A stretch of DNA of 64,000 nt from Vulcanimicrobiota bacterium (GTDB lineage Bacteria > Vulcanimicrobiota > Vulcanimicrobiia > Vulcanimicrobiales > Vulcanimicrobiaceae): the NCBI GenBank assembly GCA_963820825.1, contig CAWGBN010000007.1:307960-371959 (forward strand), written 5' to 3'. Positions 41,807 through 41,956 of the stretch are shown one piece after another. Both the position numbers and the translations under genes were made by a program. The notes under the pieces are model-generated. The model saw only the letters and a program-made list of their open reading frames with translations, did not search any database and was not told where the DNA came from. Positions within the stretch are counted from its first letter, which is position 1, and the number at the start of each line of letters is the position of its first letter.

Positions 41807-41956
41807 AGCGCGGGCGGGTCAAACGTGATGCCGAGGAAGCTCCAACCGACGAGCGTAGCCATGGAGGGCGGAGCGAGGAGGCGGTGCAGCAGGAGCGGAG
41901 GGCCGGATGCCGGAGCGACGAGCGGTTCCGAGGCGTCACGTTTGATTGCCCGCGCT
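41807..41956 (+). ncRNA. GGA-rich structured element (candidate CsrA-binding RNA or MITE/REP-like repeat)
   Basis: About 25-bp terminal stem with G.U pairs; 7 GGA motifs in 41863-41914. Confidence 0.5.

Follow-up and report, generated by a model that had tools for sequence, protein, structure and literature searches.

A dispersed repeat of Vulcanimicrobiota with a TwoAYGGAY-like fold and a predicted two-loop CsrA site

The element at positions 41807 to 41956 of the window (the whole 64,000-nucleotide stretch of Vulcanimicrobiota DNA that was analyzed) is one of 17 to 18 copies of a dispersed repeat in its source genome, G000. We favor, with modest confidence, the reading that this is a dispersed repeat of the TwoAYGGAY design whose GGA strand, when read in a neighboring mRNA, is a predicted two-loop dock for CsrA. 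We observed that the repeat is multicopy and patchily present, that its fold covaries and its loops are conserved, that it sits at the 3′ ends of genes and lies in both orientations at the same sites, and that it is codistributed with csrA.

Results

The element occupies a 158-bp gap between two convergent genes, neither of which has a Pfam family according to our ORF map and Pfam search: an upstream gene on the plus strand (41107 to 41796, 229 amino acids) and a gene on the minus strand (41955 to 42626, 223 amino acids). It begins 10 nt past the stop codon of the former, and its GGA strand is the predicted mRNA strand of that gene. We found no terminator-like site on the plus strand between this stop codon and the element. 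Consensus scans revealed no U-tail or intrinsic terminator after the stem and no sigma-70-like promoter at the site or in either of two doublet regions, so that the promoter and intrinsic terminator of its own that would mark a Csr/Rsm sponge were not found by such scans. In many genomes of the genus, a paralogue of the upstream gene (about 50% identity) has one in-frame stop inside the match, which may reflect two genes or a recoding site. Elsewhere in the window, a short ORF (39929 to 40267) carries repeated KGG motifs, and we take it to resemble general stress or LEA-type proteins.

As a sequence-only reading had described, the element is clasped by a long basal stem with one bulged G; positions 41807 to 41832 pair with 41932 to 41956 to form 25 bp, three of them G·U. 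The plus strand folds at -88 kcal/mol (z -4.1; none of 200 shuffles equaled it), and the minus strand folds more weakly, at -70.9 kcal/mol (z -3.3). The outer part of the stem is specific to this site and is not common to the other genomic copies; it comprises a 5′ arm (41807 to 41821) paired with a 3′ arm (41943 to 41956), the final two bases of which lie within the stop codon of the convergent gene. The inner part is a family-conserved stem of 11 bp (5′ strand, 41822 to 41832). According to alignment and covariation, it leads through a tandem GA into a 4-bp stem (GGAA) that closes a three-way junction (41833 to 41838), with the 3′ strands of the 4-bp stem, the tandem GA and the inner basal stem at 41926 to 41942. 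From the junction, all on the plus strand, arise arm 1 (41839 to 41887) and then, at 41888 to 41925, a single-A linker, arm 2 (41889 to 41923) and a GG linker, as in the RF01731 consensus junction. Each arm is built of short helices, with tandem G·A and GNA internal loops between them.

Covariation supports this predicted three-way junction on a long basal stem. When 36 copies, the set from which we also built a covariance model (R1), were compared, 93% of cells in the junction model were paired and double changes occurred at 26 of 37 pairs; slid controls were 28 to 46% paired. The order of parts in the model is the 11-bp inner basal stem, the tandem GA, the 4-bp stem and the junction, with linkers of 0, 1 (A) and 2 (GG or GU) bases. 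Within arm 1, double changes fell at alignment pairs 18:69, 19:68, 22:66, 23:65, 30:59 and 40:49. The proposed extension of the stem through GGAA-GCUC/GAGC-UUCC held in part: GGAA/UUCC covaries in the 36 copies, whereas GCUC/GAGC, with 2 double-change cells over 4 pairs against 9 for the five junction-model pairs that compete with it, is at most an alternative fold.

The count of seven GGA within 52 nt (41863 to 41914) proved correct, and an eighth lies at 41835. The enclosed purine-rich loop that was thought to carry them, however, is not open and consists of the two structured arms. Two of the seven GGA are in terminal loops, and the other five belong to tandem G·A or GNA internal-loop motifs, which leaves two of the seven as candidate protein sites. 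Of the two mini-hairpins suggested earlier, GCC-AUGGAG-GGC covaries in the 36 copies, while GC-AGGA-GC had no double changes and did no better than shuffles. Arm 1 ends in C-AUGGAG-G (41860 to 41867), an ANGGAN hexaloop and, from its conservation and the published consensus, a predicted high-affinity CsrA-type site. The second real terminal loop, missing from the earlier reading, is C-CGGAU-G at 41903 to 41909 in arm 2; this conserved GGA pentaloop has no leading A and is predicted to be weaker. According to passages of PMC4005645, CsrA/RsmE binds ANGGAX with high affinity when a stem presents it and binds pentaloops less tightly. The terminal loops of the element fit this consensus, and the ANGGAX-type loop of Csr/Rsm sponges is present.

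Both loops are close to invariant in the family. Among 94 copies aligned to R1 (from 102 matches, second and weaker copies having been dropped), GGA occupied the arm-1 terminal loop in 92 and the arm-2 terminal loop in 91, an ANGGAN loop closed by C-G was found in arm 1 of 72, and the two scored internal GNA positions read GGA in just 54 and 40. Kin are not independent, and the copies had been picked for their similarity to the query, which inflates conservation. The core is the most conserved part of the element, and its covariation and near-invariant loops hold across phyla. Enrichment of ANGGAN hairpins across the source genome was weak (tenth of 251 loop classes) and uninformative. We conclude that the element is real, structured and under constraint.

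The sequence-only reading had left open whether the element was a sponge or a dispersed repeat, and the repeat option was borne out: the element is multicopy and polymorphic by site, carries loops of the forms C-ANGGAN-G and C-NGGAN-G, and is codistributed with csrA. The genomic copy-number check by BLAST, as had been suggested, revealed five further near-full copies in G000; R1 matched 17 copies at E ≤ 1.1e-4 and a further true copy, with the motif present, at E 0.03. These copies form subfamilies distinguished by arm 1, in some of which additional GGA hairpins occur, and subfamilies B and C carry three or four GGA loops instead of two. Matches to R1 were present in 43 of 44 genomes of the genus and in 109 of 150 genomes drawn from the class, with 0 to 45 copies per genome. 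When we compared the orthologous site in the 29 best-scoring relatives of 80 searched, it lacked the element in 27, and related elements were found there in L057 and L056 only; one further genome (G139) has a copy at the orthologous site in the same orientation. A unique, conserved small RNA of the 3′ UTR was rejected as an explanation because the site is mostly empty in relatives.

Related forms extend well beyond the source lineage. A scan for the 26-nt pattern of arm 1 found it in records of at least Vulcanimicrobiota/Eremiobacterota, Planctomycetota, Desulfobacterota, Chromatiales, Krumholzibacteria, Eisenbacteria, Actinomycetota and Fibrobacteraceae, a list that is a lower bound since 25 of 64 parts were covered. 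Most of 30 non-Vulcanimicrobiota loci that we folded share the same clasped, branched plan, and R1 scored all 15 such loci tested at E ≤ 2e-4. In Actinomycetota, a one-arm form (L143 and L182) ends at a start codon, where it appears, from its sequence, to supply the ribosome-binding site; we read the L182 form as lying between two ribosomal protein genes.

The host genome encodes csrA, as the predicted link would need. The single csrA of G000 lies outside flagellar clusters, and its product is similar to solved CsrA proteins. This gene (L001:1381-1656, C5) adjoins sulfate adenylyltransferase-like and transporter-like ORFs, and its product has a 35-residue C-terminal tail. A look-up of csrA with fliW had been proposed; the first was present in 45 of 45 genomes of the genus, whereas fliW was found in 0 of 16; in the class draw, it was found in 12 of 61. 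No CsrB-like RNA turned up when G000 was scanned crudely for hairpins. In the class draw, the repeat was present in 107 of 135 csrA-positive versus 2 of 15 csrA-negative genomes; these counts were made from tallies (21 no-match genomes unlisted) that include G059, G179 and G202, with G203 assumed to be the dropped genome, and, like all our codistribution counts, they treat kin that are not independent. Within family f3 the repeat was present in 5 of 12 csrA-positive versus 0 of 9 csrA-negative genomes, and all 10 hosts chosen outside named Vulcanimicrobiota records (two without a phylum name) have csrA. For comparison, csrA occurs in about 30% of bacteria, and Planctomycetota and Pseudomonadota are rich in it, according to parts of PMC13443453. 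Three observations run against a CsrA link: csrA-negative G142 (290 contigs) and G171 (94% complete) hold copies in which the GGA loops are intact, the repeat is frequent in fliW-positive genera as well, and in the expanded subfamily of G122 arm 1 mostly carries ACGAU instead of GGA.

Placement and strand were assessed in 120 copies from the genus, 96 of which had both neighbors resolved. These 96 comprised 34 in convergent gaps, 31 sense, 31 antisense and 0 divergent; at least one copy in G122 is in a divergent gap. The GGA strand was therefore the non-mRNA strand in 31 of the 62 copies between codirectional genes, and the loops were retained in 29 of 31 antisense versus 28 of 28 sense copies. 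Given this even orientation and the near-equal loop retention in antisense copies, the data lend no support to selection on host transcripts. There was no replication-strand (lagging-strand) bias (46:52 copies) when the origin was taken at dnaA and with four of five genome lengths rounded. On the GGA strand of the inner stem, G·U exceeded A·C by 119:12 in 114 copies, although much of this excess stems from two inherited positions; in the outer arms of the same number of copies the ratio was only 167:122. Since the inner-stem excess is the same in sense (30:6) and antisense (30:5) copies, selection or copying must see the GGA strand as a single strand. Close pairs of copies were divergent in 15 of 15 cases in genomes of the source family, and tandem pairs are present in other lineages.

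Beyond the 11-bp stem the arms add a median of 18 further Watson-Crick pairs. At least 10 further pairs were present in 77 of 93 copies, versus 2% of 400 mismatched pairs, and in 35 of 93 the arms extend into a neighboring stop codon. At the rho and nuoE sites the opposite arm is an inverted copy of a coding end or start. Arms are alike at the same site in either orientation and hardly alike between sites of one genome, and core similarity was 0.859 within a genome, 0.853 at one site and 0.822 otherwise. The 94 copies fall into 38 sites, and both orientations occur at 11 of 19 shared sites. In another comparison, an overly strict automated count scored 2 of 28 rows as inverted, and those rows were judged by eye. 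Loci L330 and L302 are identical in 286 of 300 flank bases and have the same arms, and their cores are identical at 91 of 94 positions but inverted. Between sigF and alaS, both orientations are also seen in assemblies consisting of 2 to 9 contigs, which makes it unlikely that assembly error is the sole cause. At rho, all filled sites judged by eye are antisense, so flipping is not free everywhere.

Some coreless sites bear small hairpins over a stop codon, and insertion may have been into an older hairpin; coreless stems persist at others (L349, L045 and L046). In the nuoD-nuoE gap, a conserved stretch of 18 to 19 nt upstream of a sense copy is complementary to the first codons of nuoE (L236, L320, L327, L289, L307, L334, L011 and L082); the two show matching changes between genomes, and in the RNA their pairing would clasp the nuoE start region with a long stem. 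At L302 and L330, two convergent genes end in mutually complementary bases and the stem spans both stop codons, so arm copying may have rewritten the last codons of a protein. A second, REP-like palindromic repeat has repeatedly been inserted into the core or has replaced it (L020, L076, L359, L360, L370, L056, L045 and L048, the last a tandem array).

A Y1/RAYT family gene was found in 0 of 5 copy-rich genomes, and a RAYT/IS200-type mobilizer was rejected on that count. No enzyme gene recurred near copies in regions of G122, G022, G131 and G117 or among 95 neighboring metagenome ORFs, which included one DDE transposase and one HNH protein. No copy matched viral contigs or plasmids, and no direct target duplication was seen by eye at G122 ends or counted at gene ends (0 of 62 and 0 of 65). 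With neither target duplication nor a cognate transposase found, the plain MITE that had been offered as an option is not favored. As for terminal inverted repeats, the 11-bp inner stem is conserved and the outer arms are site specific; copies in G122 have defined ends. That genome (L255 to L274) shows a recent-looking burst of 45 copies, in which the 33-bp stems of otherwise near-identical copies differ by fully compensated blocks. In most of the 22 G122 copies viewed, GTAG or GCAG stands just before the stem and may represent the internal-loop motif that also lies at the base of arm 2; the GTAG tag is not general in the source genus.

Discussion

From its sequence and predicted fold, the repeat probably works like TwoAYGGAY (RF01731, clan CL00106; PMC2864571) and is probably its distant homologue. 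The sequence-only reading had inferred a new sponge architecture, but a pair of GGA hairpins rising from a long basal stem of low conservation is the plan of this described motif. In passages of a bioRxiv preprint (10.64898/2026.09.22.753630), TwoAYGGAY consists of two AYGGAY hairpins on a basal stem, its copy number varies widely, 68% of its doublets are divergent, and it is proposed to act as a Csr/Rsm sponge and to expand in a mobile-like way; passages of PMC4333381 propose CsrA binding and note the tandem GA and poorly conserved outer stem. Our repeat shares with it two sequential GGA-loop hairpins rising from a common basal stem, as seen by covariation, the 0 / A / GG junction spacing of the RF01731 consensus, the tandem GA within a long, poorly conserved external stem, and many copies with a wide copy-number spread and divergent doublets.

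The differences are also clear. The source copy has AUGGAG and CGGAU loops, so AYGGAY does not stand in both; family-wide the loops are ANGGAN/NGGAN, with AYGGAY in arm 1 in 53 of 94 copies and mostly a GGA pentaloop in arm 2, and each arm strings together G·A and GNA internal loops, unlike the plain stems of TwoAYGGAY. Its lineage differs as well, being Vulcanimicrobiota (Eremiobacterota), with related forms in Planctomycetota, Desulfobacterota and others. The RF01731 model gave no match at gathering score at the site or 16 related loci, and an Rfam scan of these gave no relevant family. The same model does match in G254, and there R1 matched all three full RF01731 loci on the same strand at 20 to 21 bits (E about 0.002), against 10 to 13 on the other strand. 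Our analysis adds the tracking with csrA, the random orientation to transcription, the cores inverted between fixed arms and the arms that run into stop codons; the passages on TwoAYGGAY cited here contain neither core inversion, nor arms into stop codons, nor a csrA co-occurrence test. We found no report of core inversion or of the repeat in the source lineage, and the supplements of the preprint may cover both.

CsrB/CsrC and RsmX/Y/Z are stand-alone genes with a promoter, a terminator and many GGA sites. Our repeat differs in having two loops, no promoter or U-tail that we could find, and a dispersed, polymorphic distribution. It resembles these RNAs, and the hcnA-type site, in presenting GGA in C-G-closed hexa- or pentaloops, and its pair of loops suits a CsrA dimer (passages of PMC4005645). 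GTAG-type REP/REPIN elements and MITEs, as described in parts of PMC3733652 and PMC3184786, are likewise intergenic and palindromic, mostly downstream of genes, between codirectional or convergent genes, and often paired; unlike them, the repeat is a branched fold of 120 to 170 nt with site-varying arms, for which we found no RAYT or target duplication.

Under the reading we favor, the GGA strand would fold as RNA into the three-way junction and offer its two loops to one CsrA dimer. The source copy would be cotranscribed in the 3′ UTR of the upstream gene, and sense copies could jointly act as a distributed CsrA buffer or as a shield of mRNA ends, in a genus with csrA and without fliW. Copies would spread, and be homogenized within a genome, by some enzyme or by recombination. 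Template switching or conversion may lengthen the long arms and keep them perfect, and the arms could in turn let the core invert by template switching or recombination, moving the loops off or onto the mRNA strand. A bolder extension, which we regard as quite unlikely, is an invertible CsrA-docking cassette: the core would flip in living populations and toggle a two-loop site in the mRNAs of core operons (nuoD-nuoE, sigF-alaS, recA-recX and lpxA-lpxB), an enzyme-free phase variation of posttranscriptional control in a CsrA lineage that lacks FliW.

A rival that we judge unlikely is a selfish single-strand repeat whose fold and GGA loops are read, as RNA or single-stranded DNA, by a mobilizing or converting protein, the likeness to CsrA sites being incidental or an aid to persistence. 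Single-stranded DNA, too, forms stable tandem G·A and GNA motifs, the loops and the G·U bias track the element's own strand regardless of host gene direction, copy number ranges from 0 to 45, and core similarity within a genome (0.859) exceeds that at unrelated sites across genomes (0.822). However, the loops match the CsrA consensus, the presence of the repeat follows that of csrA in the class and across phyla, there is no replication-strand bias, and no enzyme gene recurs among the 95 neighboring ORFs. We regard as highly improbable that a transposase moves the repeat as a classical MITE or a GTAG-type REP/REPIN. Terminal inverted arms, divergent doublets that recall REPINs, and the GTAG/GCAG before the stem in most viewed G122 copies, like that of GTAG REPs in passages of PMC3733652, speak for it, but the failure to find Y1/RAYT genes in any of 5 copy-rich genomes, the lack of direct duplications at the ends of G122 copies or of genes, arms that follow the site and not the genome, and no match in viral contigs or plasmids speak against it.

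Two other rivals concern what the RNA itself would do. A stand-alone small RNA sponge, made by each copy or divergent pair from its own promoter or excised at the stem by RNase III, is in our estimate very unlikely, even though a stem of 25 to 45 bp is a plausible RNase III substrate, a central promoter in the divergent close pairs (15 of 15) could read both GGA strands, and the crude scan gave no CsrB-like RNA in G000; the site and both doublet regions scanned lacked a sigma-70-like promoter, several doublet spacers span just 36 to 50 nt, the stem is without a U-tail, and the site is empty in most relatives. That the long stem alone matters, as an mRNA 3′-end stabilizer, a processing site or a bidirectional pause, with the core as passenger, would fit the absence of the 96 resolved copies from divergent gaps, stems that begin near stop codons and the coreless stems at L349, L045 and L046, but this is barely credible, since the core is conserved above all other parts and, across phyla, covaries and keeps its loops nearly unchanged.

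Sponging of CsrA and mobile-like expansion have already been published as ideas, so what is gained here is evidence and reach and not a new class. Rfam's RF01731 model misses whole phyla of the TwoAYGGAY motif. If the predicted two-loop CsrA dock is correct, the repeat bears on the function of TwoAYGGAY RNA and on CsrA control without FliW outside Gammaproteobacteria, for which this lineage, with its orphan csrA, a repeat that tracks csrA and the same cassette lying both ways at the same sites, is a natural test bed.
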